A DNA stretch of 64,000 nucleotides from Waterburya sp. (GTDB taxonomy: Bacteria; Cyanobacteriota; Cyanobacteriia; Cyanobacteriales; Xenococcaceae), in the NCBI GenBank assembly GCA_965217895.1, contig CBDCJV010000002.1:3424001-3488000 (forward strand). The letters are read 5' to 3'. The notes beneath the pieces were generated by a model that was not told the origin of the DNA, did not search any database, and saw only the letters and a list, made by a program, of their open reading frames with translations. Of the stretch, positions 12,497-59,751 are shown one piece after another. The translations under genes and the position numbers were made by a program. How positions within the stretch are numbered: the first letter of the stretch is position 1; every line of letters begins with the position of its first letter.

Positions 12497-12605
12497 TTGA
12501 GTGATCTGTATTTACCAAATGAATAAGTAAAATACTGTTTCAGCATTACATATTCAGCAACGCCTATATCTTTTCTTAGCCTGCTTAAATTCGATTAGGA
12601 GAGAA

Positions 12606-44076: not shown

Positions 44077-44150
44077 GGGACTGTAGTTCAGCTGGTTAGA
44101 ATGCCTGCCTGTCACGCAGGAGGTCGCGGGTTCGAGTCCCGTCAGTCCCG
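44077..44150 (+). tRNA. trnD: tRNA-Asp (GTC)
   Basis: Cloverleaf with GGGACTG/CAGTCCC acceptor stem, CCTGC-CT GTC AC-GCAGG anticodon arm and GGTTCGAGTCC T-arm. Confidence 0.97.
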
Positions 44151-44317
44151 TTCGTGCTAAATGCACTCACCTTATAGACTTCCCACCTTAACCTCCTGCG
44201 TAACAAGCAGGCATTTACTCAAAACTTACTCAAAAATGAATATAGCAGTAGGACGAGGACGAGTGCAACGAGTACTTATGTACCCCAATTTATCGAGCGG
44301 TTAGATAAGCACAAAAA

Positions 44318-44352
44318 AATGACGGGTTGCAAAATATCACAACTCCGTCATT
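44318..44352. terminator. Hairpin near the left end of the element
   Basis: AATGACGG-GTTG-loop-CAAC-TCCGTCATT. The A-run on its left gives a U-tail for minus-strand transcripts. Confidence 0.55.
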
Positions 44353-44475
44353 ATGTCAAATCTAGTATCTGAAATTTATCCTAACCTCTACTCGCACGAG
44401 AATGAGATTTAAGCTTAATGCACATCCTGTTAGGGAAGTAGTGGATTATTTCTATTTTCCCTTACCTCTATTAGT

Positions 44476-44739
44476 CTATTTTCGATCGTTTTCTAGCTTA
44501 TCTAGAATCTTATCCACCATCTTTTCTAGATAAATCAACCTTTCTTTTGACTCTTTAAAATCAAGATTATTTGATTTGTTTTCTAAGTGCTTTTTCTCCT
44601 GGTAGTCAAACCATTCTTCTATTATCAAATCTAGTGCCCTTGCATTACCTATTTTTTTGTCTATAGAAACGCCGTTTATTATTGCTCGAGCTTCTTCTGA
44701 CATCATAAATGTTCTAGGCTCAAAATTTTTCATACCCAT
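44476..44739 (-). CDS. Small putative DNA-binding protein (RHH-like), paralog of 44887
   Basis: GGAGG RBS; ARALDLIIEEW resembles SRALDVIVREW in the neighbour. Confidence 0.6.
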   Translation of the reverse strand: MGMKNFEPRTFMMSEEARAIINGVSIDKKIGNARALDLIIEEWFDYQEKKHLENKSNNLDFKESKERLIYLEKMVDKILDKLENDRK

Positions 44740-44886
44740 AAAATTCCTCCAATACGTACAATTTATTTAACTTACTTAAAATCACTCAATCTGCTCTGAT
44801 TTTTTGCTATAAGCGTTGGTTTGACGGTATCTCAAAGCCAAAAAAGTTAGTTAGTTGAGTTAGAACCAAACAATGTACAATAGAGG

Positions 44887-45195
44887 CTATATAGCCTCTT
44901 CCTCCTTAGTCTCCCAGACATTAGTGTTGATTTCTGACCTTAGATCTGAGATCTCGTCATAAAGCTCAAAAGAGCGCCTCCAAAGAGATGATACTTTTTT
45001 GAGCAATTCCTCGTCATTGAAAGTGCGGTTTTGCTCGGCGTATTTTTGTCTCTGTTCAAACTCCCTCCACTCACGTACGATTACATCTAAAGCTCTACTA
45101 TCGTTGTCCTTTTCTTCAATGGACTTTATTTTTATTGCTTCTATTGTTTCGATATCCAGCGAAAACCCTTTGTGTAGCCTATTTCTTTTTCTCAT
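44887..45195 (-). CDS. Small putative DNA-binding protein (RHH-like)
   Basis: AAGGAGG RBS; basic beta-like N-terminus followed by helices. Confidence 0.62.
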   Translation of the reverse strand: MRKRNRLHKGFSLDIETIEAIKIKSIEEKDNDSRALDVIVREWREFEQRQKYAEQNRTFNDEELLKKVSSLWRRSFELYDEISDLRSEINTNVWETKEEEAI

Positions 45196-45252
45196 GAGCC
45201 TCCTTTAGTGTTTGTATATTTCTAGAGCGTTGTACACTTCGTTGTACGTTTT

Positions 45253-45516
45253 TTACTTACGCCTACGCTTCTTACGCTTTTCCTTCTTAGTGAGTAATTT
45301 TTGAGTATCACCACCAGAATTTAAAAGACGTAGGTACGTTAACAGGTCTTCAAGCTGTTCATCGCTTAAAAGCAACCTAGAACGCTTCTCATAGCGTTTC
45401 TTGATGACAGATATGCAGGCTGTAGTAGACCAGCCTAAAATAGCTACTTCGTCATCTATCGCGTGCTTAAGTTCCCAAAAACTAACTCCGTCTAGTTTTT
45501 CTTTTTGTCTCTCCAC
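45253..45516 (-). CDS. Hypothetical protein
   Basis: LGWS...YEKRSRLLLSDEQLEDLLTYL, a pattern seen in small cyanobacterial mobile-element proteins; basic tail. Confidence 0.6.
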   Translation of the reverse strand: MERQKEKLDGVSFWELKHAIDDEVAILGWSTTACISVIKKRYEKRSRLLLSDEQLEDLLTYLRLLNSGGDTQKLLTKKEKRKKRRRK

Positions 45517-45814
45517 TTTGTATAGAGTTGATTACGCTGTGTAAATGATGCAGTTGGCATTCCCAATCTACTACTAGTTTGTGATTTATTCTTTTGTCTC
45601 CTTTGAACAAAAAATAACTATCTATTTTTTTAGCCAGCCTTACAAAATCAGTAAACTCACACATAGCACAGTACATTATGTTTTGTACTTCTAGATTTCG
45701 CCTAATTCCAGCTTCGTCTCCATCTATATATGATTCAATGAAATAGTTGGTATTGTCTATCGCTTGATTCAATGCCAGGACGACAATTTCTAGTTCCTTG
45801 TCCGTAATTCCCAT
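45482..45814 (-). CDS. Hypothetical protein
   Basis: 110 aa, AAGGGAG RBS, in an operon. Confidence 0.6.
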   Translation of the reverse strand: MGITDKELEIVVLALNQAIDNTNYFIESYIDGDEAGIRRNLEVQNIMYCAMCEFTDFVRLAKKIDSYFLFKGDKRINHKLVVDWECQLHHLHSVINSIQSGETKRKTRRS

Positions 45815-45821
45815 AATCTCC

Positions 45822-47015
45822 TTATCCTTTAGTCCATTTACCTTTTTGCAATCTCAATCCCAAATCAAGCAAACACTCTTTAGTGTCTCTTGGCTTAGGA
45901 GCTTCAAACAACCAACCTTGCTGTACCCACATATCTACTTGACCGCGTATTTGAGCTGTATAGAGTATCAGTTCCATGTTGGCGTTCAAGGCATTCTTGG
46001 TTTCAGTAGCTACAAAATCTCTAAGCAGACTACTTAACCCCGCGCTCTTTTCGGTTTCCCTTTTAAACCAAAACCAATAATCTCTCATCCTGTTAACTGC
46101 TTCCGTGTCGTCTGACCAGATACCAGTGGCAATCCCACAAGCCATCATGTCAAGGCTAATAGTTCTTTGTTGAGAACCTAGTCCTTTTACTGACTTGCTT
46201 AAAATACGCCTAGCAGTAACAAAAGTACTAGCTACGTCGATGTCCCAAAACTCATCATATAGCTTAGAGAACCCTTTCCAGCTATAAGCAGATATATCCA
46301 GTAACGCACTTTGCCAGTTATCATCGGTTATCCCTAACTCGATCTTACGATTGTCTGAAAGTTCCTCTACGCGACTACAAGGGATTACTATCAGTCGCCT
46401 CCTTAGTTCTTTAAAGCGATCGTCTAGATGCAGAGGTGAGATGCTAGAAAACACTTTAGGACAAAAGCACCTAAACTCTATATTGACTCCTGTTTCTTTA
46501 GACGAGACAACAATCTTATCTGTACTTTTGTCATACCCAAACTTAAACATATTGTACAGCTCTGGACTAGTGGTAAAGGTGTTAGCACTAACGTCATCCC
46601 AGACCATGCAGGTATTTCTTTCGACTGTCTTGTAAGGAGATTGATTTTCTCCTTCTGCTACTGGCACTTCCGCCCAGGCAGTCCTTCTTTCTTCTAAGCT
46701 GTTTCTTATGCCAGCAAAAGTATCACTACTAGAGTTAATAGGAACACCGTGTAGACAACTAGCCAGTTTAGCAAGCGTTGATTTGCCACTTCCCGATTGT
46801 CCGTTGAGGAACAAATAAGGAACAATCTTACACAAAGCAGAAGGGAGCATAAAGTAAGTAGCGATAATATCGTAAAAGTCATGAGGCAGAAATATTGTTT
46901 GCTTGAGGATGTTTAGCAAGTTTCCAGGAAGAGTCAAATTGTCACTATAAATTTCCCTCCAGGTGTCGCTTATGCCGTCCTCAGACACAAACAAGGTTGA
47001 GTAATCGTAAGCCAT
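45822..47015 (-). CDS. P-loop ATPase, probable replication helicase-like protein
   Basis: Walker A GQSGSGKST, Walker B MVWDD, FCPKVFSSI, RRR Arg-finger-like motif. Confidence 0.75.
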   Translation of the reverse strand: MAYDYSTLFVSEDGISDTWREIYSDNLTLPGNLLNILKQTIFLPHDFYDIIATYFMLPSALCKIVPYLFLNGQSGSGKSTLAKLASCLHGVPINSSSDTFAGIRNSLEERRTAWAEVPVAEGENQSPYKTVERNTCMVWDDVSANTFTTSPELYNMFKFGYDKSTDKIVVSSKETGVNIEFRCFCPKVFSSISPLHLDDRFKELRRRLIVIPCSRVEELSDNRKIELGITDDNWQSALLDISAYSWKGFSKLYDEFWDIDVASTFVTARRILSKSVKGLGSQQRTISLDMMACGIATGIWSDDTEAVNRMRDYWFWFKRETEKSAGLSSLLRDFVATETKNALNANMELILYTAQIRGQVDMWVQQGWLFEAPKPRDTKECLLDLGLRLQKGKWTKG

Positions 47016-47017
47016 AG

Positions 47018-47737
47018 TTATCTGATAATTGCCATTAACATCTCAAAGTAGATATCGGAAAAGCCTTCGCAGTCTTCGTTCTCTGTGTGAACTCGTCTTG
47101 TCAGAGTAGCCAAGGAATCTTCCTCGGTATAGCTAGTGTCTTTGATATCCGCAGTCATCTGCTTTTTAAGAAAAGCTAGTTTCTCTTCTATCGAAGCTCC
47201 TTTGCTATCCCCACCATTCTTCTTAAAACCACCGTTCGACGGTGGAGTATATTGCGGTAACTTACCGCTAAGATCGATGACCTCAGTTTTGGCGTTGGTT
47301 GCTACCAGTGCCTCCAGGCTAGCCCTGTCCATCGATGCACATATCCCGTTAGGAATAAAAGCAAGTTCTCCTTTGATACCACCAGAAGGAGGGATAAAAA
47401 AGGCTTCGTTTGTTTTGATATATTCGTACAAAGCCTTTTCAAAAACCGACGGTTGATACTTGATACCCTGCCAATTGCCGTTAGCATCTTTTTCTCTTAT
47501 TTCGTATTCTTGTCCGTAGATAGGTATGGCGCATAATCCAGGCACGAGTACTTCACTTGCTTTGAAGCTTCTGACGATGCCAGAATAACTAGTGACAAAA
47601 GCAGCGATAATGTAAGCATCATTCGTAGGGTATACTTTAGCTTCATCAAAGGTAACTTTGAAATATGTTTCTGCTTTGTCTCCTTTGAGTTTGCCATAGA
47701 GGTCGTCTTTGTAGGGGTCTAAATACTTTACTGTCAT
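47018..47737 (-). CDS. Hypothetical protein (possible ssDNA-binding/replication accessory)
   Basis: 239 aa, beta-rich N-half and Gly-rich linker; immediately upstream of the ATPase. Confidence 0.55.
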   Translation of the reverse strand: MTVKYLDPYKDDLYGKLKGDKAETYFKVTFDEAKVYPTNDAYIIAAFVTSYSGIVRSFKASEVLVPGLCAIPIYGQEYEIREKDANGNWQGIKYQPSVFEKALYEYIKTNEAFFIPPSGGIKGELAFIPNGICASMDRASLEALVATNAKTEVIDLSGKLPQYTPPSNGGFKKNGGDSKGASIEEKLAFLKKQMTADIKDTSYTEEDSLATLTRRVHTENEDCEGFSDIYFEMLMAIIR

Positions 47738-47770
47738 TACTGTTCTCGATATATGTTTGCGTTGAAATAA

Positions 47771-47992
47771 TTAGTAGATTGCCTCAGAGAGAATAGGGTA
47801 GAAAGAAGACAACTTCTTGAAATAATCTTCTTCCCCTATTTCGTGCAGCCTTTTATTTGTCACATACAACAGCTCGGCTACAAGCTGTTCTGGATTTTTG
47901 TTCTGTTCTAGTGCTAGTGTTTCAACCGCGTTTATAGCCAAGCCGATTAAAGTAACGAGTCGAACATCGTAAGGTGATTCTATTGGTGTCAT
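47771..47992 (-). CDS. Hypothetical protein
   Basis: 73 aa; ATGA overlap with the upstream nuclease gene. Confidence 0.6.
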   Translation of the reverse strand: MTPIESPYDVRLVTLIGLAINAVETLALEQNKNPEQLVAELLYVTNKRLHEIGEEDYFKKLSSFYPILSEAIY

Positions 47993-48513
47993 CGTAATAT
48001 TTTTAATTTTCCTAACTCTTTTAAGGTCAGCAGATTTTTTTTGAAGTCGGACTCAAGCAGTGTTTTAACCATCTTGTTTTCAACTGGTAGCTTTTCAGGA
48101 AAGACAATTCTAAGCCTGCGGAAAATATTAAACCGAAGTTCTTCTAAGATTCCTAAGATAAGAGCAAATTCTGTTAAGAATGCACCTTTTGCCTCTACAA
48201 AAAGCAAAGGTTTGTTAGGTTGAGAATTATCAGAAATGGCAAAATCGACTTTCCATGTTTTCCCTCTTGGATAACAATAACTAGGCTTTAGTATTGATAC
48301 TGGTAACTGTCTAATTATCCTGTTTTCGCCGTACATTCTGCATAACTCTAGATATGTTTTAAACTCATGCTGGGAATCAAACCTCCAGATATGCTCAGGG
48401 AGTTTTAGCTTGCCTTTTACTCGATATATTTCTAAATTCCTAGAGTCAAGGACAGAACAGAGTTCTGTATTCCAAAAAACAGGCACGGCTTTATATTTTG
48501 GTCTCGCTGGCAT
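47989..48513 (-). CDS. PD-(D/E)XK nuclease-family protein (DUF1064-like)
   Basis: FDSQHE, WKVDFAI, FVEAKG. Confidence 0.72.
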   Translation of the reverse strand: MPARPKYKAVPVFWNTELCSVLDSRNLEIYRVKGKLKLPEHIWRFDSQHEFKTYLELCRMYGENRIIRQLPVSILKPSYCYPRGKTWKVDFAISDNSQPNKPLLFVEAKGAFLTEFALILGILEELRFNIFRRLRIVFPEKLPVENKMVKTLLESDFKKNLLTLKELGKLKILR

Positions 48514-48824
48514 TAAGCAGATTCCTCGTAAGAGCGCCTCTTGTTGTCTAGAACCCCGTAGTAATTATCCCAAGCTTCGTCAACAAGATCTAGCACCCCT
48601 TCTTTGCCTAAAACAAAAAGTGTTTTGCAGATTCCTTTTCCTATGTAATTGATTACATATTGACGGTCGTAAATAACTTTAAACATGGTCGGTACTGGAT
48701 CGCCAATACGTCGAATACTTTTATTACACTCGTATCCAGCCTCGCTAACCATAGCGGGGTGCAAAGCTTTGATAAACTTATTACCCGTCATTTCTCGCCA
48801 GGTAATAGTCTCTATTTCAGGCAT
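48513..48824 (-). CDS. Hypothetical protein
   Basis: 103 aa; TAATG coupling to the next gene. Confidence 0.6.
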   Translation of the reverse strand: MPEIETITWREMTGNKFIKALHPAMVSEAGYECNKSIRRIGDPVPTMFKVIYDRQYVINYIGKGICKTLFVLGKEGVLDLVDEAWDNYYGVLDNKRRSYEESA

Positions 48825-49228
48825 AGTTTTCTTATTGAATTGTTAGCTAAAGCTTTAAAGGCAATCTCTCAGAGCTTTGAATCAAAGGTAAGTAGATTTG
48901 ACTTTTTAAACTTAATCTACTATCGTTTTTTTTTTGACTCGCATCAGGAAAAATACGGAAATTTTAGCTAAAAATTGGCTTATTTTTTAAATAATTAAAA
49001 ATATTGTTTTTATTGTAAATAATAATTACATAACTATTGACGTTAGTGTTTTTAAAAGCAATTATATTAATAACCCTATTCCGCTTCGCTCCAAGGGAAA
49101 TATACTAGGGGTGGGTGGGCGTAGCCACAGGGAAATAATCACTTATATAAAAACTTTACTTGTTCTCTCTTCTAAGAACATCTTCTAAAAGCGTTCAACA
49201 CATCGTTCAACGTTTTTCAGATATACAT

Positions 49229-49651
49229 CTACTCACTAGTTACCTGCTTAATAATTTTCTTAGTAGCTGATATTTCTGTTTTTATCTCTTCTGTATTTTC
49301 TACCTCTGGCAATTCCTGAATCTCTTCTATCGCTCCCTGTAATCTTCCGTACCCTTCCTGTCCTTTTAAAGACTCCTCGTAAACCTTTCTTAGCTTCTCG
49401 TAAGCCTCGTCTTTTTGCCTAATAATCTCGGCCTGACTATCTAGCTTAGCTGCTACTTCTGTAAGTTTGTTCGCACTGCTGCCAATGATTAGTTGAGTAT
49501 TCGCTACCTTTAAGCCGACTTCAGGCGCACGAGCAACTCGTATCCCCAAACAGACAATAAACACAAAAACACCCCCAGAAAGCAAATTCAAGCTTAATGG
49601 AGGCAGTCGAGTAAAACCTTTAGTAATCATTGTTTTATAAATAAATTGCAT
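49229..49651 (-). CDS. TM + coiled-coil protein, candidate lysis accessory (spanin/holin-like)
   Basis: One TM (LLSGGVFVFIVCLGI) followed by a long coiled coil; overlaps the lysozyme stop (likely start 49630). Confidence 0.55.
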   Translation of the reverse strand: MQFIYKTMITKGFTRLPPLSLNLLSGGVFVFIVCLGIRVARAPEVGLKVANTQLIIGSSANKLTEVAAKLDSQAEIIRQKDEAYEKLRKVYEESLKGQEGYGRLQGAIEEIQELPEVENTEEIKTEISATKKIIKQVTSE

Positions 49652-50253
49652 TCGTCTTTTCTGCGGTTAACCAAACCAGGCAAAAGTTTTCCTCCTGCTC
49701 TAGTCCAACGACTAAACTCATTAAACGCTCTTTGATAGTCTTTTTGATTAAGTAGTTTAAGCAAAGTAGATTCACTAAACGCATCAATACCTACGTTAAA
49801 GGTAAAGCTAACTAAGGCATCAAACTGATTCTGATTTAAAGGCACGTCTACAAGCCTGAGTACAGCTTGTTCGTAAATTCTCAAGTCCTCTATAAGAAGG
49901 TTTTCAGCTTCAAGGTGACTAATCATCTGTCCTTGCTTTACTCCCTTAGTGTGTCCATAACCAATAGTCCAGACACCAGCGGGACAAAGATAAGCATTGG
50001 TTCTTAAGCCTTCCCACTTCTTGATCAGGCTTACGCCAATCTGCGAAGTCTTATTAGGTTTAATCGTTTTTTCATCAGGCTGTGTCATCCAGCCAACATA
50101 AGGCAAAGCTCCTTTAGGTCTAGGGGGGAGGTTTAAAACTTTTCTTGCTTCGGTATCGATTAGGTAATCAACACTCAGGCATTCGTCATCAGATGTTCTA
50201 CTTGTTATCGCTGCCATCGCCCGTTCCCGCATCTCCTTGATCGACAGGTTCAT
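49627..50253 (-). CDS. Phage lysozyme (GH24 endolysin)
   Basis: WEGLRTNAYLCPAGVWTIGYGHT (E-x8-C-x5-T), QNQFDALVSFTFNVG, LPGLVNRR..E. Confidence 0.95.
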   Translation of the reverse strand: MNLSIKEMRERAMAAITSRTSDDECLSVDYLIDTEARKVLNLPPRPKGALPYVGWMTQPDEKTIKPNKTSQIGVSLIKKWEGLRTNAYLCPAGVWTIGYGHTKGVKQGQMISHLEAENLLIEDLRIYEQAVLRLVDVPLNQNQFDALVSFTFNVGIDAFSESTLLKLLNQKDYQRAFNEFSRWTRAGGKLLPGLVNRRKDECNLFIKQ

Positions 50254-50731
50254 TTATTATTACTCCTGATACTGTTATTGTTTTTTCTAGATAGATAGGT
50301 ACACAGTAAAGTGTTAACGAATTCAAGTTAGCTAATGGAGAAATTAGTACCGTATCCCCTGGAGTTAAAGTAATAAAGTTTTGGTCGATAAATTCTTTAG
50401 TAGGCAGTAGAGAGCGACAAAATACTCTCTTTTCTAGCCTCACAATTGAAAAATAACAACTTGCATAACCTGCGTTATTGGCGTCTATATCAGAAACACT
50501 AATAAAGTCATCATCAGATTCAACGTCGCTACCTGCTGCTACTACCAAGTACTCCTTGCCCAAAATATCTTTTAAGTCAAACTGGTGTTGTTTGTTTGCT
50601 TTCAAGTCATAAAACACTATCGGCGTATAGCTTTCCAACTCCTTAGCTCTGTAAACCAACCCATCTTCTTTAAATACAGCAATCGAGTCAGTGCCATTGA
50701 GAATAATATCTTTTTTAATCGAACTTTCCAT
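50198..50731 (-). CDS. Hypothetical beta-rich protein (candidate virion protein)
   Basis: 177 aa in a coupled operon upstream of the lysozyme. Confidence 0.55.
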   Translation of the reverse strand: MESSIKKDIILNGTDSIAVFKEDGLVYRAKELESYTPIVFYDLKANKQHQFDLKDILGKEYLVVAAGSDVESDDDFISVSDIDANNAGYASCYFSIVRLEKRVFCRSLLPTKEFIDQNFITLTPGDTVLISPLANLNSLTLYCVPIYLEKTITVSGVIINEPVDQGDAGTGDGSDNK

Positions 50732-51465
50732 TATAAAAACCCTAAATCTATTTGTAGTCTGCTGCCAATCACTTGTCTTAAAGCCTGTCCTTGGTCTGGT
50801 GGCAATAGCGCAGCTAATCCCTCAGCCAAGGTATATAATCCTGCGTCTGTTTGACTAATCCGAGTATTAAGCTGCGTTTCTCTAAAGTCATCAAGCTGTA
50901 TCTGGGAAGTTTCCCTCTCGCTTAGTTCCCTAAATTTATCCGTTATCAATTCCTCAATTACCGTTAGTTGTGCCTCAATCAAACCACTGGGTTGATTTGG
51001 ATCGATGCCTAGCACATTACCAATGCCGAACAAAGCATCCTCGACGAAGTTAAGCGTGTCACCTGTATATTCGTAAACCCTGATAGCCACATCTTTAAAC
51101 CAAAACGGCGGTGTATACCTAAGCCTAAACCTATCGGTACTAATGCGGTTTGTTTCGACTATCTGTAGCTTGTTAATAAACAAGCGGGTCGGAAGACTTT
51201 GAAGAACACTCGTTACGGGGCTATTACCACCAGGTACAAAATTGTAAACTTGCCTGATATCTCCTGCAAACTGCCAGCTAGGTTTGCCCGAGCCTGTTGT
51301 AGCTACGACAGCAATATAGTCAGAAAAAAGGCTAACGCCAAGGTCGATAGGAGGTATAGGGGTATGAGAATTTTCATTGATAATAGTAGCTGTTCTACTA
51401 GCATCGGCTACAATCCTCCAATCTTCAGAGTTATCAAAAAATATTAAGTCTTGTCCTGCTGGCAT
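50731..51465 (-). CDS. Hypothetical protein, beta-rich N-domain + helical C-terminus (candidate virion protein)
   Basis: 244 aa; PSWQFAG...FRLRYTPPFWFKDVAIRVYEYTG. Confidence 0.6.
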   Translation of the reverse strand: MPAGQDLIFFDNSEDWRIVADASRTATIINENSHTPIPPIDLGVSLFSDYIAVVATTGSGKPSWQFAGDIRQVYNFVPGGNSPVTSVLQSLPTRLFINKLQIVETNRISTDRFRLRYTPPFWFKDVAIRVYEYTGDTLNFVEDALFGIGNVLGIDPNQPSGLIEAQLTVIEELITDKFRELSERETSQIQLDDFRETQLNTRISQTDAGLYTLAEGLAALLPPDQGQALRQVIGSRLQIDLGFL

Positions 51466-51471
51466 AACTGG

Positions 51472-51708
51472 CTATACCAATTTCATTTCTTCTAGATTGC
51501 CTTCAATAGTTTCTAGATAGCCGTCGATGTTCACTTGAGCGGTTTCAAGTAAATCGATGTACTCCTGAAAGCTAATTTTCTGAGCCAAAAAATCGTCCTT
51601 GGCTACTTCGACTATGGCATAGGTGTCCATTAATCTGTCTAGATCACTGTCGTTCATATCCCTAGTACTACCACCAGGGATAATTAGCTCTATTGCCCTA
51701 TCAAGCAT
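51472..51708 (-). CDS. Small acidic hypothetical protein
   Basis: 78 aa, tightly spaced in the operon. Confidence 0.6.
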   Translation of the reverse strand: MLDRAIELIIPGGSTRDMNDSDLDRLMDTYAIVEVAKDDFLAQKISFQEYIDLLETAQVNIDGYLETIEGNLEEMKLV

Positions 51709-51710
51709 TT

Positions 51711-52274
51711 TTAATACTTCTCAGAATGAAAACTAGCTGAAGCAGTCGTAAGTGCTTCGACAGCAATAAGTATATCCCCTCTAACTTTGTTTTCTGCTTT
51801 TTCTGTTGCCGATGCACCATACGGGAAGGTAAAAGAATTGCCGATTCTCTTGCTGTATTTAATGCCCGTAATTTGACTAGTTGGTGATGCCGAACCTGTT
51901 CCGTAATCAAATACAGTTACCTGCGCAGGTTTAAAGCCCTGTATCTTGGTTTGACTTTCTGGGTCGTAAGTAACATGATTACAAGCACTTTGTACAGAGT
52001 CCAGAGTCGCTTTCTCATCTGCTCGTTTTGAAAGTGCTACGATTGCACCATTCGCAGGGTTTCCACCGAAGAAAAAAGGTAAAATGCCTGTTTTTAAAAT
52101 TTCACCAGGATTGCTATTATCGTCTCTGGAATAAACTAACTTAGTTTTCCCAGAAGCAAAGTCTTGAAAGTTTCTGGCAATTGTATTAGCAGGGGCATCG
52201 GGAGTGGGGGCGTTTGAGTTGGGAGTACGCAAAGTGGTCAAGGCATATTTTAATCTACTAAATCTTCTAGCCAT
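51711..52274 (-). CDS. Hypothetical protein with basic N-terminus (candidate capsid/structural protein)
   Basis: 187 aa; MARRFSRLKYAL...GFKPAQV...SQITGIKY...SFTFPYG. Confidence 0.62.
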   Translation of the reverse strand: MARRFSRLKYALTTLRTPNSNAPTPDAPANTIARNFQDFASGKTKLVYSRDDNSNPGEILKTGILPFFFGGNPANGAIVALSKRADEKATLDSVQSACNHVTYDPESQTKIQGFKPAQVTVFDYGTGSASPTSQITGIKYSKRIGNSFTFPYGASATEKAENKVRGDILIAVEALTTASASFHSEKY

Positions 52275-52391
52275 ATCTAATTATTGCTATTTTTATATAT
52301 TTACACTTTGTTTCTAACCTATCTGTCTTTGAATGAAAATGATTTGACTGGCAACTGATTAGAGAATCGACCTTTAAGGGCGCACACTTTT

Positions 52392-53210
52392 TTAAGCAAC
52401 CTCGATCGTTCTTGCTTTTGTCCCCGTTCTGTCTACTAAAATAAGCGGTTGAGTCAATCCTGGAATAAATAATTCTGCATAAGCAAATTTAACTGTGGCT
52501 ACGGGTCTTCGTTTTGGCTTCCTGACTACATCGCCCATGACTCGTACTGTTCCAGGTACATTGTAATTTTTTTTGTCTTCGTGGTATCTGAGAAAATTAT
52601 CCCAGTCTGGTTCGCTGTCATCTTGTATCCTAATTGCCTGCTCGATTATTTTCTTGGCGTCCGTTTCGTCATCTGTAGTGACGCTAAAAAAGTAACCTTT
52701 CTGTTTGTCTGCATAACTCCACAACTGTCTGCCTTTTCTGTAGAAAAAAACAGGTCTAGCAAAATCATTTAGTATTTTTAAAGCCAGTCGATTAATATTT
52801 GTTGTCGTATAATCTTCTTCTCTCCACCTAAAACTTACCTCGCTCCTAGCTGGTCTTCTTTCATTATCGGAAGCCTCATATTTGTCCTCTCTAAAGTGAA
52901 GCTTTACCTGTGGATAGTAGGTATTAGAAATCTCAAAGTCAGTGCTAGGAATACCGTAAACGTATTCATCTAATAAGTTTCCCGCTTCTACCCACCAGGT
53001 TAACATCCTGGCTAACGTAAGAGTCATTGTATCGGTGTCCTTATGTAGACAAATACGTTTAATTAGCTGTCTTGGCGCAGCCGTGCTAAGGCTAGCGTCA
53101 TCACTACCGTCAACGTCTCTAAAGTGCTTGTTTATAGCCTTGTTAAAGTAAGTTCTACAGTAACTTTGAAACATTTCAACATCTGGTTTACTCACAAGTT
53201 CGTTCCTCAC
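52392..53210 (-). CDS. Hypothetical protein (candidate structural protein)
   Basis: 272-aa ORF heading the leftward operon. Confidence 0.65.
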   Translation of the reverse strand: MRNELVSKPDVEMFQSYCRTYFNKAINKHFRDVDGSDDASLSTAAPRQLIKRICLHKDTDTMTLTLARMLTWWVEAGNLLDEYVYGIPSTDFEISNTYYPQVKLHFREDKYEASDNERRPARSEVSFRWREEDYTTTNINRLALKILNDFARPVFFYRKGRQLWSYADKQKGYFFSVTTDDETDAKKIIEQAIRIQDDSEPDWDNFLRYHEDKKNYNVPGTVRVMGDVVRKPKRRPVATVKFAYAELFIPGLTQPLILVDRTGTKARTIEVA

Positions 53211-53447
53211 CTGTTCTAATTGGTATATTCATACTAACTTTTAATTTCAGGTGTTAATATTTTGTTTAGTTTCTGTTGTTCCAATAGATGCGCACTCTAA
53301 AAACGTGATAAGAAACAGGCACGCTCTAAAAACGCGTAGGGATAACTACTGATTCTTGTTTTTAAACTTTTTATCTGTCTTTTGTTTTTTTATCTGTCTA
53401 TCTAATTGTTTCTTAAGATACTGTAGTTCGATAACAAAAGCTTTCTA

Positions 53448-53897
53448 GTGCTACCAAGAGGATGGTTACAAACCAGACTCTTTCATCATTTAAATACCAG
53501 TCAAAATAGCAACAATTTAAAAGCACCCTTGGGAGAATTAGCTAGTAACACCCGATTAGATATCCCAAACACTACACCTACTACAACCAACAAATCATCT
53601 GTACCTACTGCTAGTAATGAGTTACAAAATAATAACTTTATAGACAAATCTCTTTGCGTATTTCATAACCATTTAGACTGGTTAAGTTTTACTTTTGAGA
53701 AGCTAAGTAAAGAGGAATTTAACCAATTAATTCAACTTACTGGTAGAGGATTAACCACGTTAGAAAAAAACAAATCCTGGTCTAGTGGTGAAAGAGCTAG
53801 AAGCTATCAAAACACTATTCACTCTGCTATCAGCTTAAAAGGTGCTTATAACTGCTATCAGGTAGAAAACAAAATAAGAAAAGTCGGTTTCCGATAA
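53448..53897 (+). pseudogene. Truncated Rep_trans-like rolling-circle initiator (N-terminal fragment)
   Basis: SNT motif followed by HLDWLSFTF, typical of the N-terminus of Rep_trans-type initiators. It ends after 149 aa without the catalytic core. Confidence 0.55.
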
Positions 53898-53954
53898 ATA
53901 GGCAAAAAAAAAGAAGCCCTGTTAAACAAGACCAACTTTCTTTACACAAAGACA

Positions 53955-54263
53955 ATGATAAATCCAAACAATCAAAATAGCAACCAGTAGTTTTCACCTG
54001 CCCAAAATAGCCCTAGTAATACCCCGCTAGATATCCGTTATACTCCACCCTTTTCTACTCATAGCTTTAAGTCACTTTTACTTTCTTCCTTAGACTCCCA
54101 GAATAAAAATAATATATTAAAAAATACTATTGATTATTTAAGAATTAGTAGTAGTAAATTAAGTAAAAGGTCTTTTGGAAACTTACTAGCTAACCTAGTC
54201 TTACCTGTACCTTGCTTTGAAAACAAAATACCTTTTGTCTATGATACATTAGTACTTGTTTGA
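53955..54263 (+). pseudogene. Second Rep-like N-terminal remnant with an in-frame stop
   Basis: MINPNNQNSNQ*FSPAQNSPSNTPLDI...TIDYLRISSSKLSKRSFGNLL aligns with SQNSN...ASNTRLDI...HLDWLSFTFEKLSKEEFNQLI of 53448. Confidence 0.55.
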
Positions 54264-54300
54264 ATACTAACCTTAGTTACACCCAAAAGATATCTAAATA

Positions 54301-54609
54301 ATGACTCAAATTAACATTGCTACCGATATTCCAAGTCAAATCAATACTTTAGAACGCCTAGCTATGTGGTCGTGTATGGCATTGAGAAGAGTAAATCCAA
54401 CTTTAGCAGTCATTGAAATCGCCGACCAGACAGCCGAGAAGGTAGCGCAAACCGCTTTGGTACAGGCTGATGATGGAAAAATTAGGTTTATTGGCAGATT
54501 GAGCCTGGAAGTAGCAGCCGATTATGCAGAAGACAATACGGCAAAGCTTTGGACGAAAGCACTGGAGTTTAGCAATACTCAGCTACCCGCAGCCTACAAA
54601 GCAAACTAA
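54301..54609 (+). CDS. Hypothetical protein
   Basis: 102 aa; TAATG coupling to the 718-aa gene. Confidence 0.72.
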   Translation: MTQINIATDIPSQINTLERLAMWSCMALRRVNPTLAVIEIADQTAEKVAQTALVQADDGKIRFIGRLSLEVAADYAEDNTAKLWTKALEFSNTQLPAAYKAN

Positions 54610-56765
54610 TGGGCATTTATTCAAAATTTGTCAAAACACCTGGGGGGCAAACTAGATTTGTCGTCACGACTGAACCCCCTAGTATTTACGAAAGCTTTAG
54701 AAGTCCTATCCCCAAACCACCAAAACCACCTGTGTTGCTCAAGGGGGTAGGTAAGCTTCTAGGAATCCCTGCTTTAGTTCTTCTTGATTTTTTCTTTAAT
54801 AACAAGCCCTTGAGCGACGGAACGATCCCTCAATGGATTACGCAGATTGACGAGCAGCAAAAAATAGGCACAAAAAGCTATCCCCAGTCGCGTGACACCT
54901 ATTATCGCTTTGTTTATCGAGAAGCTAATCTTAATAACGGCGTGGTGACATGGGGTAATGACTACGTAAGGGTCAACTCAGATCGGTTTAACGGCATCCA
55001 GTCTTGGCGATTAAAGGCATTCTACAAAGGGATTGCCTCTTATCCAGCCGATAATAAATTTTTTACCTACGTTTACTATCCCAGCACAGGTAAATACGAT
55101 TCAAGACCAGCAGGTGAACGTAATGCTGATTATTATGTTGAGGTCGTTGATTTTTTAGGTGTAATAACAACTATCTACCTGGGTGGTACTAGCGGTCTAT
55201 GGGGACAAAGGTTTATTACAGTTGACAATATCCCTCAGCCCGAAATACAAGAAGATATTAAAACCAAAGCTAATAATCAGTTTGCAGCAGGATTAGCCTT
55301 AATCGATCTGCTTGGAGCTAAAGAATGGCAATTTGCAGGATTTAGTAAGCTGCCTAGCTTTGGTAATAACCAGTATCCTCAGATTGATTTTATTCCTCTA
55401 CCGACAATAAGTAATAAGCCAGGCATATTACCTACTCCTACACCTGTTCCTATACCCGACCCCGAGCCAAAGCCAGAAATAAAGCCAGAAATTAATGGTG
55501 GCACTAAAGAGATAATCGAACAAAAACAAGGACAAAAGAATGAATACCCCGATCTCGTTCCTGGCAAAAAATACATCAAGAGAATTACGACCAAGGATTC
55601 AGATGGAAAAATTATTAAGATTACTGTAAATCCTTCTGAAATATTAAACCCAACGCCTACACCAGTTCCCGACCCCAAACCAGTAAAAATTACCAAGACT
55701 CCCGACCCCGAGCCTAAAAACAATATTATTATTTTTACTCCTAATCCTGTTCCACCCCCTTCGATTAAGCAAGAAAAAATTACAGATAACGACCCTAAAC
55801 CATTCCCTCCGCCAATTATCCCCCCTGTCAAGCCACCCAATCAAACCGCGACAGATGACTGTGCTGGTTCGTGTGCAAATAGAGCTTTAGCACCAGGTTC
55901 ACCAGGGTTGCTAAATATTACAGGCTTATTAAATGGTTTGCTACTACAAGATCCTCTACTTAGAAGAATAGATACAACTACTACGACAACAAGAGACATA
56001 GTTTCTCATGCCGATTATGGTCTGTCTAAAATACAAAAATTCGCTAGTACCGCTTGGAAGGCTACCCACGGAGACAAGATCCTCAATGCGCTTACAACAG
56101 CGGTAGTTATTCATAACGGGGTAATGCTGTCTAGAGGATTGGGGAACAGTCTTGCTGACGTTGCTACCGTCACGCTTCAAGCCATGGGGCTTAAAGACTC
56201 GGAAGGTAAACCGTTTGACGTCCAACAGATAGTCAGTGAAAAACTAACTCAGATGATGCAAAGAATATTAGGTGCTGGAAACTACGAAGCACTCACTGCT
56301 AAACTGGCATCTTATAGTCGTGTCTACCAATCAGCTGCTAACTTAGCTGATTTAACCTTCAGTCTGTTTGATTCAGCTAGAAACATCGCAGAGGCTTCGG
56401 CTACTAATACAGGTAAGATAGGTAACGCTCTCAGGGAAGCTGGAGCGGTTTACGAAGATGCCTATGAAGAGATGTCCGAAAAATACAGTCCTCAGAACAG
56501 AGCAATGCGTAAGCTGTCGGGTCTGACTGAGAATGTAGAGGAGTTCACAGAAAAGGCAGACAGAATAGGCGAGGTAAGTAGTGAGGTAGTTGAAATCAGA
56601 GAGAGCTTTGCAGAGCTACAGTCAGAAAGAGAGGTGCTAAAGAATGAGGTTAACACCGCCTTAGATCTCAAGAAAGAAGAGAAAGACTTGGCTAAGGAAG
56701 ATGTTCAGACTAAAACAGATGTTAACGACATTGACTTTGACCCCGCTCTAGCTGAAGACAACTAA
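54609..56765 (+). CDS. Large hypothetical protein with Pro-rich linker and helical C-terminus (candidate spike/receptor-binding or penetration protein)
   Basis: 718 aa: hydrophobic stretch, aromatic beta-rich domain, PTPTPVP/PDPEPK repeats, CxxxC, coiled-coil C-terminus. Confidence 0.75.
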   Translation: MGIYSKFVKTPGGQTRFVVTTEPPSIYESFRSPIPKPPKPPVLLKGVGKLLGIPALVLLDFFFNNKPLSDGTIPQWITQIDEQQKIGTKSYPQSRDTYYRFVYREANLNNGVVTWGNDYVRVNSDRFNGIQSWRLKAFYKGIASYPADNKFFTYVYYPSTGKYDSRPAGERNADYYVEVVDFLGVITTIYLGGTSGLWGQRFITVDNIPQPEIQEDIKTKANNQFAAGLALIDLLGAKEWQFAGFSKLPSFGNNQYPQIDFIPLPTISNKPGILPTPTPVPIPDPEPKPEIKPEINGGTKEIIEQKQGQKNEYPDLVPGKKYIKRITTKDSDGKIIKITVNPSEILNPTPTPVPDPKPVKITKTPDPEPKNNIIIFTPNPVPPPSIKQEKITDNDPKPFPPPIIPPVKPPNQTATDDCAGSCANRALAPGSPGLLNITGLLNGLLLQDPLLRRIDTTTTTTRDIVSHADYGLSKIQKFASTAWKATHGDKILNALTTAVVIHNGVMLSRGLGNSLADVATVTLQAMGLKDSEGKPFDVQQIVSEKLTQMMQRILGAGNYEALTAKLASYSRVYQSAANLADLTFSLFDSARNIAEASATNTGKIGNALREAGAVYEDAYEEMSEKYSPQNRAMRKLSGLTENVEEFTEKADRIGEVSSEVVEIRESFAELQSEREVLKNEVNTALDLKKEEKDLAKEDVQTKTDVNDIDFDPALAEDN

Positions 56766-56848
56766 AATAACCTAAAAACACCAACGAGTTTATAGGCATT
56801 TCCAGAAAGCGTTGTACACTTCGTTGTACGTTTTTTAGATATGCCTAC

Positions 56849-57334
56849 CTACCTCTTCACCCAAACACCATCTTTTACCGCATAAGCTTCTAACTTCCGT
56901 TTGATTATTTTCCCCCTGGGTTTTTGAATACCGTGTCGCCACAGCTTGACCTTCCATTCACTTTGTCCCGTTATGGCTGCGATACGTTCATCATTCAAAT
57001 ACTTCGCATTTTCGTCTTGCTGTAAAGCCTTAATCTTGTCTAGTTCAGACTCTAAATACGCTACTTGCTCTTCTAACTCCTTTGTCCTCTCCAGTACCTG
57101 TACTGCTAGCTTATTAGCAGCCATAATGCCGTCTTCTGCTACAAGCCTCCACGCATCGAAGTCTCGATCCTCCATCAGACTCTTTGGTGTCTCGTCAATA
57201 ATCCCAGCACCTTTCTTAACCAGAGCCTCTAAAGCTTCAGATCTAGTCATCCTATGTTTGTCCGCATACTCGCTTATCAGTTCCTCTTCTGTAATATCGA
57301 AGTATCCCGCGATCGCCGTCTTATTCTCTTCCAT
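56849..57334 (-). CDS. Putative regulator (RHH-like N-terminus, coiled coil, HTH-like C-terminus)
   Basis: MTRSEALEALVKKG; DERIAAITGQSEWKVKLWRHG. Confidence 0.6.
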   Translation of the reverse strand: MEENKTAIAGYFDITEEELISEYADKHRMTRSEALEALVKKGAGIIDETPKSLMEDRDFDAWRLVAEDGIMAANKLAVQVLERTKELEEQVAYLESELDKIKALQQDENAKYLNDERIAAITGQSEWKVKLWRHGIQKPRGKIIKRKLEAYAVKDGVWVKR

Positions 57335-57759
57335 AGCTTTGTCTCTCAGCTTCTACTGTTAAGCAATTATGTACTAAGTTTACTGTTTCACCTTCTGCTT
57401 CTATTGCTCTTAAAAACAGTCACGAAACACCCTAATCAGCGATGGTTACAAAATGGCTCGAAGCCGAAGAAAGTCAAGTGCTTGACCGCAGGTTTTTGAG
57501 GTACGAGAAACACTTTACGTTCGCAGGTGAAGAGGTATAATGCCATCGCTTGCTGATTGGGTTTGACTCAATACGCTTAATCTGAGATGCTATTCTTGCA
57601 AAGAGAATAATCTTGTACTTTATTAAATTAAAGCTAACCTTGATTTGTAAGCACCTCTTTGCACCCAAAGGTGCAGACAAACAATAAAAAAGACTCCTGT
57701 TAGAGAGCCTCTTTTTGATAAGCATATTGGTTTAATATATACCTAGTCCAGTAATGCAC

Positions 57760-59169
57760 CTATAGTAGCGCAAGAATCCCTTCCTTGTCCTTCTGGTAGA
57801 CGATTGACAGTATTTTAGCTGATATCTCTTTGTCTTCAGGAGAGGCAGCGCAGAGCCTCTTAACAGAAGCTAGTGCAGTAACGAAGTCAATAGCATTCTG
57901 GTTGGAGTTAAGTAACAAATCGATAGTTGTCTGCGTTGATTGTCTTTTCTTGTAGACGGATTCATTCATCTGTACTGTATGTCCCATCGATTGCGCTCTA
58001 ACTTCTTGAGGTATCCCCGCCTGTATCCCGTTGATATTAGCCAAGTGCCGTAAAGCGTGTGTCTGGGTAAAAGGAGCATTCCACTTAAGTAGTTTTTTAT
58101 AAGCACTTTTGTTGTAATAATTTGCCTTAGCTCTATCGCTACCATTCTGTACGCCAATTTCTGGTAGCAAAGGATTTTTAATATCTAGCAAGTCTATTAG
58201 GTTAGGATAGGCAGGCGGAATATTAGGACGCGCTATTCTGTAGCCTGTTTTAGTTGTAGTTTTAGTCGCGGTGAAACCAGATACAACTATTAGGTTGTTT
58301 GTGTTAGTAGCATCTGATAAGGACGGAATTATCACGCCGTCTTCTGTTTCAAAAGGAGTATACAAGTTAGATATTGCGAATACTTCATGAATTCTTAGTC
58401 CATAGATTATCTGTGTAGAAAAAACCCACAGCCAAGCTTTTCTTACGTCTATTCGAGCATTTGAACGAAGCTTGCTGCTAACTCCAAGCACTCTGTCTTT
58501 CCATTCCAAAAAGCTTTGTAATGTTATATTCTGAAGCTTTTTGTACTCAACTTGCATTACATCTATTTCGTCTAATTGGTCGATTAACGCTCGGTTATGG
58601 GCAAGCCTACATAAACGCTTCATAGAAGAAACGACACCTTTAAAAGTTTTTGTACCTTTCTTCTGTCTATCGATGACTTTTTGAATGTCAGCTAGGTTAA
58701 GCGTTTTATGGGTTGGAAGATATTTGTAAAATCTGCCGTAGGTATCATGCCAGCTTGACTGGTCACTAGGATTATCTTTATCCCTTTTCCTTTTTGTTCT
58801 ACTAGGTCTATCCCAAAAGTCATCCTCTACCTTTTTGATCGCTTCACCAAAAGTCAGCCTGTCATCAGCTAACTGAGACTCCTGTTTAATTTCTTTGTCG
58901 TACCACTGCCAGAATTCTGCTTCGGAAGCTAAGTTTTTTAACGCCTCCGCTACTTTGTTAGATTTTTTAAGAGCCTCTACCATCCCGTCTAAGGTAAATG
59001 TACAGCCACAGGCATAAGGCTTTCTAGCTGTATTAGGAGTCTTAAACTGCAAGTAGATGTTTTGACCTTTGCGAGTCATACCTACACCTCTAGGCGTTTG
59101 CTTCTGGTATCTACTGAAGTCAGATAATAAAGTCTCGTATCCTATCTCGTCTGTGTAATCCTTACTCAT
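57760..59169 (-). CDS. Tyrosine recombinase / integrase
   Basis: Catalytic set: GLRIHE (R), TKTG (K), HALRH (HxxR), MGH (H), VYK (Y). Confidence 0.92.
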   Translation of the reverse strand: MSKDYTDEIGYETLLSDFSRYQKQTPRGVGMTRKGQNIYLQFKTPNTARKPYACGCTFTLDGMVEALKKSNKVAEALKNLASEAEFWQWYDKEIKQESQLADDRLTFGEAIKKVEDDFWDRPSRTKRKRDKDNPSDQSSWHDTYGRFYKYLPTHKTLNLADIQKVIDRQKKGTKTFKGVVSSMKRLCRLAHNRALIDQLDEIDVMQVEYKKLQNITLQSFLEWKDRVLGVSSKLRSNARIDVRKAWLWVFSTQIIYGLRIHEVFAISNLYTPFETEDGVIIPSLSDATNTNNLIVVSGFTATKTTTKTGYRIARPNIPPAYPNLIDLLDIKNPLLPEIGVQNGSDRAKANYYNKSAYKKLLKWNAPFTQTHALRHLANINGIQAGIPQEVRAQSMGHTVQMNESVYKKRQSTQTTIDLLLNSNQNAIDFVTALASVKRLCAASPEDKEISAKILSIVYQKDKEGILALL

Positions 59170-59246
59170 TTCTTACTCACTTTGCTTGCAATGGTTAACG
59201 AGTAAGCGTTTGAGAGAACGCTATTGCGCTGGTTAGTCGGTCTACT

Positions 59247-59271
59247 GGGAGTTCAAGTCTCCCTACCCCCA
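59247..59271 (+). other. tRNA 3'-end fragment (T-arm + acceptor 3' strand), candidate att site, tRNA-Leu(UAA)-like
   Basis: GGGAG-TTCAAGT-CTCCC-TACCCCC-A, 78 nt upstream of the integrase start. Confidence 0.8.
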
Positions 59272-59476
59272 CTCGACATAAAGTCTTTTGTTGAAAAGGA
59301 TTTAAGACTGTCAGGTTAGATGACATTATTTTGTTAAGACGACAAATAATTAGTGAATGTACATTTGTATCCCCTTAATTTGCTTTTTAAACGAGTTATC
59401 GTAGAATAACAAAAATGAATGGCTTGCTAGTTGCCGCTAACAAGCCAAAGACAATTAAGACCAACCTAAGTTTGTT

Positions 59477-59611: not shown

Positions 59612-59751
59612 ATTAGGAAATCTCCTTAAATAATAGGTTAAGGGCGAGTAATCAACCCTCAGCTACCCATTATATCCAACGTCCTAAAAATCTAGTGTAT
59701 TTGCACCCATACCTACCTTTTATCCTTAAAAGCTATAGGCTATAAGCTTTA

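Follow-up and report, generated by a model that had tools for sequence, protein, structure and literature searches.

A conserved six-gene module and a possible family of small temperate virus-like elements in cyanobacteria

What sort of element carries an integrase and its own lysis genes without a single recognisable gene for a virus particle? The question is raised by 64,000 nucleotides (nt) from the cyanobacterium Waterburya sp. (Xenococcaceae; GenBank assembly GCA_965217895.1, contig CBDCJV010000002.1, positions 3,424,001 to 3,488,000). I call this whole stretch the window, and coordinates are positions within it; where a handle is needed the contig is C2 and the window G000:C2:3424001-3488000. 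Integrated at 44152-59272 lies an element of 15.1 kb, edged on the left by a tRNA-Asp gene and on the right by a tyrosine integrase gene and a 26-nt 3' fragment of tRNA-Leu. It holds 22 open reading frames (ORFs) of 73 to 718 amino acids (aa), all leftward except those of 149, 102 and 718 aa. My proposal is a family of small (7-15 kb) elements, widespread among cyanobacteria but so far undescribed, that forms an autonomous, temperate and virus-like lineage; this copy is a hybrid member that has probably lost precise excision. I put the probability of the family reading at about 0.45, somewhat short of an even chance.

A foreign element with a conserved module

The element does not share the sequence style of its host. 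The highly iterated palindrome HIP1 occurs once in its 15.1 kb and 58 times in the remaining 48.9 kb of the window; some 18 sites would have been expected in the element, and this scarcity marks its DNA as foreign. A preliminary description, made from the letters alone, had picked out the single site by eye and had named ORFs that all exist, at the right coordinates. Its claim that hallmark genes of tailed phages and inoviruses are missing also holds: in Pfam, PHROGs, NCBIfam and PADLOC the 22 ORFs give no match to a family of terminase, portal, HK97, tail or Zot proteins, and none to a defence or conjugation family. The curated Pfam cut-off is passed only by a 208-aa GH24 lysozyme. PHROGs return an endolysin, a weak integrase match (469 aa) and a very weak primase match (397 aa), NCBIfam and PADLOC give nothing useful besides the lysozyme, and tRNA is the sole match in an Rfam scan. 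The evidence thus supports a foreign, integrase-bearing, lysis-competent element without the hallmarks of either group.

What the element does have is a core of six genes without known relatives, directly followed by lysis genes:

54301..54609, plus strand: module gene 1, 102 aa; conserved ahead of the long gene in loci L061, L063-L065, L068, L070 and L076
54609..56765, plus strand: module gene 2, the long gene, 718 aa; transmembrane (TM) segment at residues 41-59; alignment of relatives
52392..53210, minus strand: module gene 3, 272 aa, the best-conserved module protein; alignment and structure model
51711..52274, minus strand: module gene 4, 187 aa; its N-terminal helix is basic and conserved; alignment and structure model
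51472..51708, minus strand: module gene 5, a 78-aa acidic protein, conserved in position and sequence
50731..51465, minus strand: module gene 6, 244 aa; alignment; its first ~145 aa recur more widely than any other part of the module
50198..50731, minus strand: 177-aa ORF, all-beta by eye; 25-52% identical in L059-L062, in close (large-type) relatives only
49627..50253, minus strand: 208-aa GH24 lysozyme (endolysin); PF00959 at 6.2e-52, phrog_7 endolysin at 2.9e-62
49229..49651, minus strand: 140-aa holin-like lysis partner with a coiled coil and one TM segment, at residues 19-37

The last two overlap and are conserved together in relatives; the endolysin with a TM partner that was first described is present. 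Across the family an endolysin gene usually comes after the module, and the holin-like partner with one TM segment is a feature of the subgroup to which this element belongs. In relatives the module is collinear and on one strand; here the 102- and 718-aa genes run opposite to the other four.

How widespread is the module? In a sample of 301 genomes of the order, the N-terminal part of the 244-aa protein has matches in 40, G000 included, which cover 28 of the 119 genera; most of these matches are open frames 125-190 aa long. Twenty neighbourhoods around such matches were compared. Sixteen carry at least three of the six module genes in collinear order, one carries two, and three carry only the 244-aa N-terminal part. 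The gene order seen in the window therefore recurs elsewhere, on plasmids and metagenome contigs as well. Within the genus Waterburya, DNA matches are found in 28 of 39 genomes (again with G000). Searched against 1.84 billion cluster representatives, a profile of the 272-aa family collects 686 (at 50% identity) with E<=1e-3 and 362 with E<=1e-30. Of the 150 listed, nearly all are 260-300 aa long, and the named homologues are all "hypothetical protein" of Pleurocapsa, Hydrococcus, Chondrocystis or other cyanobacteria.

Around the module little else is constant. Distant relatives, 7-9 kb in size, have a virus-like layout: a helix-turn-helix (HTH) regulator of the HTH_3 type comes first, a small integrase (a tyrosine recombinase of ~190-220 aa) and the module follow, and a lysis enzyme that varies between relatives closes the series; some of them also encode a DdrB-like protein. 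The lysis slot holds GH24 in the window and in L068, M15 in L064, M23 in L114 and phrog_3000 in L076, while the replication modules include VapE-like or DdrB-like genes. The core of the family is invariant; integrases, replication genes and endolysins have been exchanged around it.

Some members exist in free form. Three of 45 metagenome contigs have terminal direct repeats, one of 11.5 kb and two near-identical ones of 8.3 kb. The 14.5-kb locus L086 is circularly permuted, with a tRNA 3' fragment linking its left end to the integrase end, and in contig G013:C117 an Asp-type arm (described below) is joined to the start of the integrase, the attP form. The module is also found on two plasmids from a single Nostocales strain. 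One, a circular ParAB replicon of 15.6 kb, has an integrase and part of the module; the other, of 37 kb, holds a whole small-type element. PLSDB classes both as non-mobilizable.

The module proteins and the virus reading

If the family is viral, then the module would encode the particle and the apparatus by which it recognises a host. The 718-aa protein is laid out as an N-terminal TM segment, a variable beta-rich part, a proline-rich linker and a conserved helical C-terminal part (about residues 400-717) that carries hydrophobic stretches. In L069 and L114 the variable part contains segments common to phage tail fibres, tail lysins or tape-measure proteins; genes downstream in L097 and L114 have tail-fibre N-terminal motifs, and L097 has an InlB B-repeat domain in the variable part besides. 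A long protein of this kind might serve for adhesion or penetration. The particle would then be built from the 272-, 187- and 244-aa proteins as subunits, with folds unlike those of known capsids, and a late operon of module and lysis genes would build the particles and lyse the cell. In favour of a virus are the fixed multi-gene core among exchangeable integrases, replication genes and endolysins, the succession of regulator, late operon and lysis genes, the hints of an adhesin, and the free circular forms.

The preliminary description had gone further and looked for jelly-roll capsid proteins among the ORFs. That idea is so far not supported. Structures were predicted for two of the six proteins it had proposed, those of 272 and 187 aa (pLDDT 82.2 and 87.7), and both are mixed alpha/beta by DSSP, neither an all-beta jelly roll. 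No jelly-roll, HK97 or tail fold appears in any structure-search list for the two models, and the 272-aa model has only a weak 2H-phosphoesterase-like similarity. A prediction of the two as a complex, made with alignments, scored 0.03 (mark 0.32) and is evidence neither way. In the Protein Atlas the 272-aa protein gives unnamed viral clusters at 0.87-0.88 and neck/tail-terminator families at no more than 0.82, and a member of the 244-aa family reaches 0.79, all below the level that the tool treats as a lead. Sequence-profile searches of the PDB with the 272-, 187-, 244- and 718-aa family alignments returned noise only. The 244-aa protein has no Pfam, PHROG or PDB-sequence match and the 177-aa ORF no family match; the N-terminal domain of the former and the whole of the latter, which look all-beta by eye, are the remaining jelly-roll candidates. 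TM segments are confined to the 140- and 718-aa proteins, with a borderline one in a 73-aa ORF, and TM prediction over the element's ORFs finds no small membrane coat-like protein in a free, co-oriented position.

With no capsid recognised, one must ask whether the particle belongs to someone else. The element could be a phage satellite of the tycheposon or PICI (phage-inducible chromosomal island) kind, with its own excision and replication, packaged in a helper's capsid, its module redirecting helper assembly or supplying an adhesin. The accessible part of the tycheposon description gives a site-specific integrase that faces inward from one end, a module for replication at either end, and insertion at a tRNA, part of which is repeated (10.1101/2020.12.28.424599), and the window element has the same arrangement: an inward tyrosine integrase specific for a tRNA at one end, a replication block with a 397-aa P-loop protein at the other, and a tRNA with a partial tRNA copy. 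A size of 7-15 kb with no match to capsid, portal or terminase fits that organisation, so far as it is described there (10.1101/2020.12.28.424599). Degenerate remnants near other tRNAs of the same genome (C2:46194-48016, between two tRNA-Ser genes) and the variety of replication modules among relatives (VapE-like, DdrB-like) point the same way. It is hard to see, though, why the conserved core of a satellite should be a six-gene module and not its integrase or its replication genes. Nor does a satellite account well for endolysins of four families in the members (window, L068, L064, L076, L114), since known satellites rarely need an endolysin of their own. The module also sits on a ParAB plasmid, no helper has been identified, and neither the capsid protein nor the small terminase gene typical of PICI-like satellites is matched in Pfam or PHROGs. 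I consider a satellite unlikely, though it is the strongest of the alternatives.

The hairpin, the replication genes and the hybrid ends

Other parts of the element, on the right and in the middle, suggest how its DNA might move:

57430..57565, plus strand: conserved hairpin of 135 nt, recognised by covariation, whose 3' arm bears -35/-10 boxes; candidate single-stranded DNA (ssDNA) promoter or origin
56849..57334, minus strand: 161-aa putative regulator (ORF call), convergent with the 718-aa gene; homologues equally placed in L059, L061, L086 and L129
53448..54234, plus strand: remnants of a Rep_trans initiator gene, a 149-aa truncated ORF and a second partial 5' copy (tblastn to L132)

The hairpin lies between the integrase and the 161-aa gene and is far better conserved than its flanks in a genus-wide DNA search. 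Thirteen of its 33 pairs show compensatory changes in seven sequences, as against at most 6 in slid controls; 93.9% of its cells are paired, compared with 81% in shuffles, and none of 500 shuffles equals it. Sixteen cells are G.U and one is C.A, which favours the plus strand as the one that folds. The 3' arm bears a -35-like hexamer, a 16-nt spacer and a -10 hexamer in an internal loop, and the boxes are conserved in all seven sequences. In the folded plus strand they point leftward into the 161-aa gene; in double-stranded DNA (dsDNA) they point the opposite way. (The same boxes could drive a short rightward transcript from dsDNA, antisense to the region downstream of the integrase gene.)

There is a precedent for such an arrangement in Frpo of the F plasmid, whose stem-loop reconstitutes -35 and -10 boxes, by the portion of the account available (PMC9849209). 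The structural features of a Frpo-type ssDNA promoter, namely covariation, folding of the plus strand and the boxes, are all found in the window hairpin, which by its architecture is a candidate for the same class. The covarying hairpin suggests a single-stranded entry stage outside conjugative plasmids, and this can be tested directly. Two further pointers to an ssDNA stage are the DdrB-like proteins of small relatives and a Rep_trans homologue.

That homologue, of 332 aa, is encoded at L132:7873-8871 in a congener, G315. It just reaches the cut-off for Rep_trans (PF02486; 30.6 against 29.6 bits, E 3.1e-7), with the domain at residues 169-319. The 149-aa ORF of the window aligns only to its residues 7-120, the N-terminal third, and has no family match even at E 1; as it covers only the part outside the domain, the window gene is the remnant of a family member. 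Window positions 53893-54189 are homologous at the nucleotide level to the 5' end of the L132 gene, and from the truncated ORF together with the second partial copy it follows that the lineage once had a rolling-circle initiator, broken in this copy. The Rep remnants reported at the outset are thus confirmed indirectly, through the intact gene, and descent of the element from a rolling-circle (Rep_trans) lineage is supported, as judged from these alignments. L132 (G315:C1:4448000-4462000) contains at 5231-10608 a minimal element, ~1.7 kb from a tRNA-Val, with a homologue of the 469-aa integrase beside the intact Rep_trans gene; tblastn finds no module gene in it.

Should one conclude that the element is an integrative mobilisable or plasmid-like one that moves between cells as ssDNA, by a conjugation-like or some other uptake route, with Rep_trans as initiator or relaxase, the hairpin as a leading-region promoter and the module as surface or cargo genes? 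The Rep_trans homologue does adjoin an integrase in G315, relaxases related to Rep_trans (MOB_T) exist, and the module occurs on two plasmids, one with ParAB. The Frpo features of the hairpin, as far as the published account at hand describes them, can be read in the same sense (PMC9849209). Against this, Pfam, PHROGs and NCBIfam give no match to a transfer gene such as one for a coupling protein or a VirB4-like ATPase, PLSDB places both plasmids among the non-mobilizable, and lysis cassettes are not expected in a conjugative lifestyle. Moreover, ssDNA promoters and origins occur in ssDNA phages too. Transfer of this kind seems to me quite improbable.

In the virus reading, the integrase would on induction excise a circle, which would then replicate through a single-stranded stage; on entry into a new cell the plus-strand hairpin promoter could fire the 161-aa regulator before any complementary strand is made.

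Whether the window copy could still do so depends on its ends and its genes:

44076..44151, plus strand: tRNA-Asp(GTC), host side of the left junction (attL); ARAGORN, Rfam 71.3 bits
44152..44212, plus strand: 61-nt Asp-type element arm (P' arm), read from the sequence, ending in a 21-nt antisense copy of tRNA-Asp
57760..59169, minus strand: 469-aa tyrosine integrase, facing inward; phrog_1 at 6.7e-8 and motifs
59247..59272, plus strand: 26-nt copy of the 3' end of tRNA-Leu(UAA) by sequence identity, Leu-type att core (attR) at the right end of the element

The integrase, already recognised as such in the preliminary description, has no Pfam match even at E 1. It has nonetheless a box I Arg and HxLRH, GH and Y motifs, that is, the catalytic Arg, His-x-x-Arg, His and Tyr of tyrosine recombinases, and it adjoins the tRNA-Leu core; homologues 56-66% identical stand at the ends of elements in relatives.

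The left end is of another type. The same tRNA-Asp is present in the homologous left flank of four relatives (G017, G019, G020, G023). The arm that follows it closes with 44192-44212, the reverse complement of the tRNA-Asp anticodon arm with 2 mismatches, and the Asp-type arm, antisense copy included, is found behind tRNA-Asp in G022 and G058, as well as in the attP-form contig G013:C117. All four Asp-type arms (window, L126, L127, L128) keep the copy. At the Leu site of a second copy of the element in the same genome (L007), there is likewise a 19-nt exact reverse complement of the tRNA-Leu variable arm, ~40-58 nt past the tRNA. Such an antisense copy could serve as an arm site for the integrase or pair with the tRNA precursor; it is a side result that can be tested directly.

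The second copy directly follows an intact tRNA-Leu(UAA) and runs into the start of contig C2. It is 99.4% identical to window 45797-59489 (13.7 kb). The 26 nt at 59247-59272, just outside the integrase start, are identical to the 3' end of the tRNA-Leu(UAA) adjoining it, and this core is repeated at its opposite end. The two copies differ patchily in the leftmost 1.6 kb, and also in the 61 nt after each tRNA. The window copy, then, has an Asp-type left end together with a Leu-type integrase and right end. The two window flanks lie at different places in close relatives, not adjacent, and in G017 a related integrase occupies a tRNA-Leu(UAG) site beside TerC. I read the window copy as a recombinant of two resident elements, an Asp-type and a Leu-type one, which would have recombined in this genome; by its hybrid ends it probably cannot excise precisely.

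There are other traces of shuffling. A third relative in this genome, L068 (G000:C2:3921000-3940999, about 4328-12776), is a complete small-type element of 8.5 kb in the order HTH, 217-aa integrase, collinear module, GH24, holin-like gene. Its 102-aa gene is 100% identical to that of the window and the next gene just 49%, a contrast that is a sign of recent recombination between co-resident elements. Window 53902-54234, within the rep remnants, is 96% identical to G000:C2:47364-47696, between two tRNA-Ser genes, where C2:46194-48016 holds other fragments of the element; together these point to a decayed element at a third tRNA site. The three co-resident elements illustrate how recombination shuffles the regions that flank tRNAs.

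Is the window copy then an inert relic, decaying and without present activity? The truncated rep gene, the non-cognate ends and the flanks that are not adjacent in relatives would all fit. Yet both of the 99.4% identical copies have unbroken ORFs for the module, the lysis genes, the integrase and the P-loop protein, and a relic of this sort, which I hold to be slightly less probable again than conjugal transfer, would concern this copy and not the family.

Least probable of all is a protein weapon released by lysis, bacteriocin-like, in which the long protein (with its variable N-terminal part, proline-rich linker and helical, hydrophobic C-terminal part) is a toxin or adhesin, the other module proteins are accessory or immunity proteins, and the integrase backbone is the carrier: lysis genes do directly adjoin the module, but five further soluble proteins in fixed order would be superfluous for such a system, no toxin or immunity family is matched in Pfam, NCBIfam or PADLOC, and the attP and circular forms together with the rolling-circle lineage point to the transfer of DNA.

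The rest of the element comprises the replication block, small ORFs and a repeat:

45822..47015, minus strand: 397-aa P-loop protein, putative replicative helicase; Walker A motif
47018..48824, minus strand: ORFs of 239, 73, 174 and 103 aa, an early or replication block that travels with the 397-aa gene
45253..45814, minus strand: ORFs of 87 and 110 aa; the 87-aa one has a sub-threshold match to the C-terminal part of the slr1353 family, E 1.6e-8
44476..45195, minus strand: two small paralogous ORFs (87 and 102 aa; ORF calls), putative regulators without family match
45226..45266, no strand: repeat D1 copy 1, terminator-like, one of a three-copy family; folding not significant
49190..49230, no strand: D1 copy 2, a hairpin of A-run, stem and U-run, likely a bidirectional terminator; z -5.8 (plus), -3.3 (minus)
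56808..56848, no strand: D1 copy 3, terminator-like, between the convergent 718- and 161-aa genes; z -2.4 (plus)

For the 397-aa protein, first called a P-loop ATPase, the Walker A motif is plain to see and the family matches are weak (RNA_helicase/AAA P-loop families of Pfam at E 0.04-0.12; a PHROG DNA primase at 2e-3); it is 60-76% identical in relatives. The four ORFs next to it are syntenic in L059-L062, L081, L085, L087 and L129 and match no family in Pfam, PHROGs or NCBIfam. No family match supports the PD-(D/E)XK nuclease first seen in the 174-aa ORF, or the ribbon-helix-helix (RHH) and HTH candidates among the small ORFs, where the one related signal is the sub-threshold slr1353 match of the 87-aa ORF. 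The region 44476..45195 is mosaic between the two genome copies. D1 is a 41-nt repeat whose three copies stand at operon ends, each with a tandem 8-mer and a hairpin of A-run, stem and U-run; since two of the three fold significantly, D1 copies are likely bidirectional terminators.

Several observations concern the surroundings. Right of the att core, 59279-59363 is a short hairpin-containing repeat, the last ~48 nt of which recur widely in genomes of the order; in G020 the left end of an element adjoins it, and no tRNA is close by. The 91 nt that follow the Leu fragment on the right are not taken here for the native flank of tRNA-Leu(UAA), an identification first made and now withdrawn, as they contain a short multi-site repeat and no tRNA stands beside it in G020 and G006. 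Contig C2 begins inside sequence common to the window's right flank, and its last 600 bases are GC-rich and do not resemble the genome; the assembly probably has a break or a chimeric join at this repeat. Two sequencing runs of one sample were consulted, as contigs only. In one of them, X2, a contig that leaves window 59275 past the att core continues into sequence that resembles the Leu-type arm without being identical to it, a loose end that could be a further att variant or another element in the sample. A second variant of the TerC flank (window 59653-60430) occurs in run contigs at about half the depth, which implies that a duplicated segment or a second strain, missing from the assembly, reaches past the element. 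Contig depth over the element is ~2x single-copy, as predicted for two chromosomal copies.

The virus reading weighed, and its nearest known systems

A good deal weighs against a virus. By sequence no module protein matches a known virion protein (Pfam, PHROGs, PDB profiles); the confident 272- and 187-aa models are neither jelly-roll nor HK97-like, and structure searches gave them no convincing neighbour. With neither sequence nor fold to go by, "capsid" is argued purely from position and conservation. No packaging ATPase family is matched, and the sole P-loop protein is the 397-aa one of the replication block. A two-fold range of sizes, 7-15 kb, is awkward for a single icosahedral shell. The broken rep and the mismatch of attL and attR mean that the window copy may be inert, and the organisation fits tycheposon- or PICI-like satellites as well, by the part of their description at hand (10.1101/2020.12.28.424599). 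Particles have not been observed, and the run contigs show no sign of extra episomal copies and no circle joint. IMG/VR has no relative of the 244- and 187-aa proteins or the 272-aa family profile, and a phage collection has no match for the 272-aa protein, the sole query used there. (By the same searches the element is not an already classified prophage.) The 26 CRISPR spacers found by script in three repeat arrays of G000 do not match the family, the longest agreement being 14-18 nt, and no spacer-like short perfect match is among the matches listed in the genus-wide DNA search.

The fullest version of the virus reading asks for more than the existence of the family: that the module builds the particle of a new virus lineage from 272-, 187- and/or 244-aa proteins with folds unlike known capsids, that ssDNA is packaged or delivered without a packaging ATPase, and that the hairpin acts as an ssDNA promoter to switch on the regulator at entry. 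This version is doubtful. If it is true, this would be a founding member of a new virus taxon of high rank, widespread in cyanobacteria. Even short of that, the family would either extend the cyanobacterial virosphere into new territory or represent a new type of satellite, and it would offer a candidate capsid architecture, open to test, that lies beyond the folds now known. The viruses described from cyanobacteria to date are nearly all tailed phages, and a family whose core matches no virus marker gene is easily overlooked. The accessible portions of the literature on tailless, prophage and ssDNA or rolling-circle elements of cyanobacteria contain no description of it.

With which known systems might it be compared? 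Not with the tailed phages: sequence profiles detect no HK97 capsid, portal or large terminase, the marks of Caudoviricetes, in the 22 ORFs or in the proteins of relatives' neighbourhoods (127 and 85 proteins against Pfam, 111 against PHROGs). The Inoviridae come closer. They share the range of 7-15 kb, an initiator of the Rep_trans type, an ssDNA-binding protein (here in relatives), a flexible genome length, a long adhesin-like protein with a proline-rich linker, and integration. The element, however, matches no Zot/pI ATPase and has no small membrane-spanning coat proteins, and its endolysin and holin genes imply lysis rather than extrusion.

Finnlakeviridae (the phage FLiP) resemble it in their small genome, rolling-circle Rep, muralytic enzyme and mostly unmatched ORFs, and in lacking both tail genes and a packaging ATPase. 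FLiP does without the FtsK/HerA-type ATPase of tailless jelly-roll viruses, and no such ATPase is matched here in Pfam or PHROGs. The element family differs in that neither of the two folded proteins (272, 187 aa) is a jelly roll, in being temperate with integrases that target tRNAs, in spanning 7-15 kb, in the rep gene broken in the window copy, and in the lack of similarity of its 272-aa protein to any deposited phage.

For the hairpin the nearest systems are the Frpo- and ssi-type promoters. In both, by the portion of the account available, a non-coding stretch forms, in just one of its strands, a long stem-loop whose stem bears -35 and -10 boxes, and the gene directly downstream lies in the direction that only the single-stranded form allows (PMC9849209). 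Those promoters belong to conjugative plasmids and this one to an integrative virus-like element of a cyanobacterium; the likeness is one of architecture.

For the element as a whole, the layout resembles that of tycheposons and PICI-like satellites. Its core consists of the six-gene module and lysis genes, where the satellites have nutrient cargo or a capsid or terS gene; in layout, the two have in common, so far as the accessible description goes, partial tRNA copies at the borders, a size of 10-20 kb, several elements and remnants near tRNAs of one genome, and recombination that shuffles the flanks (10.1101/2020.12.28.424599).

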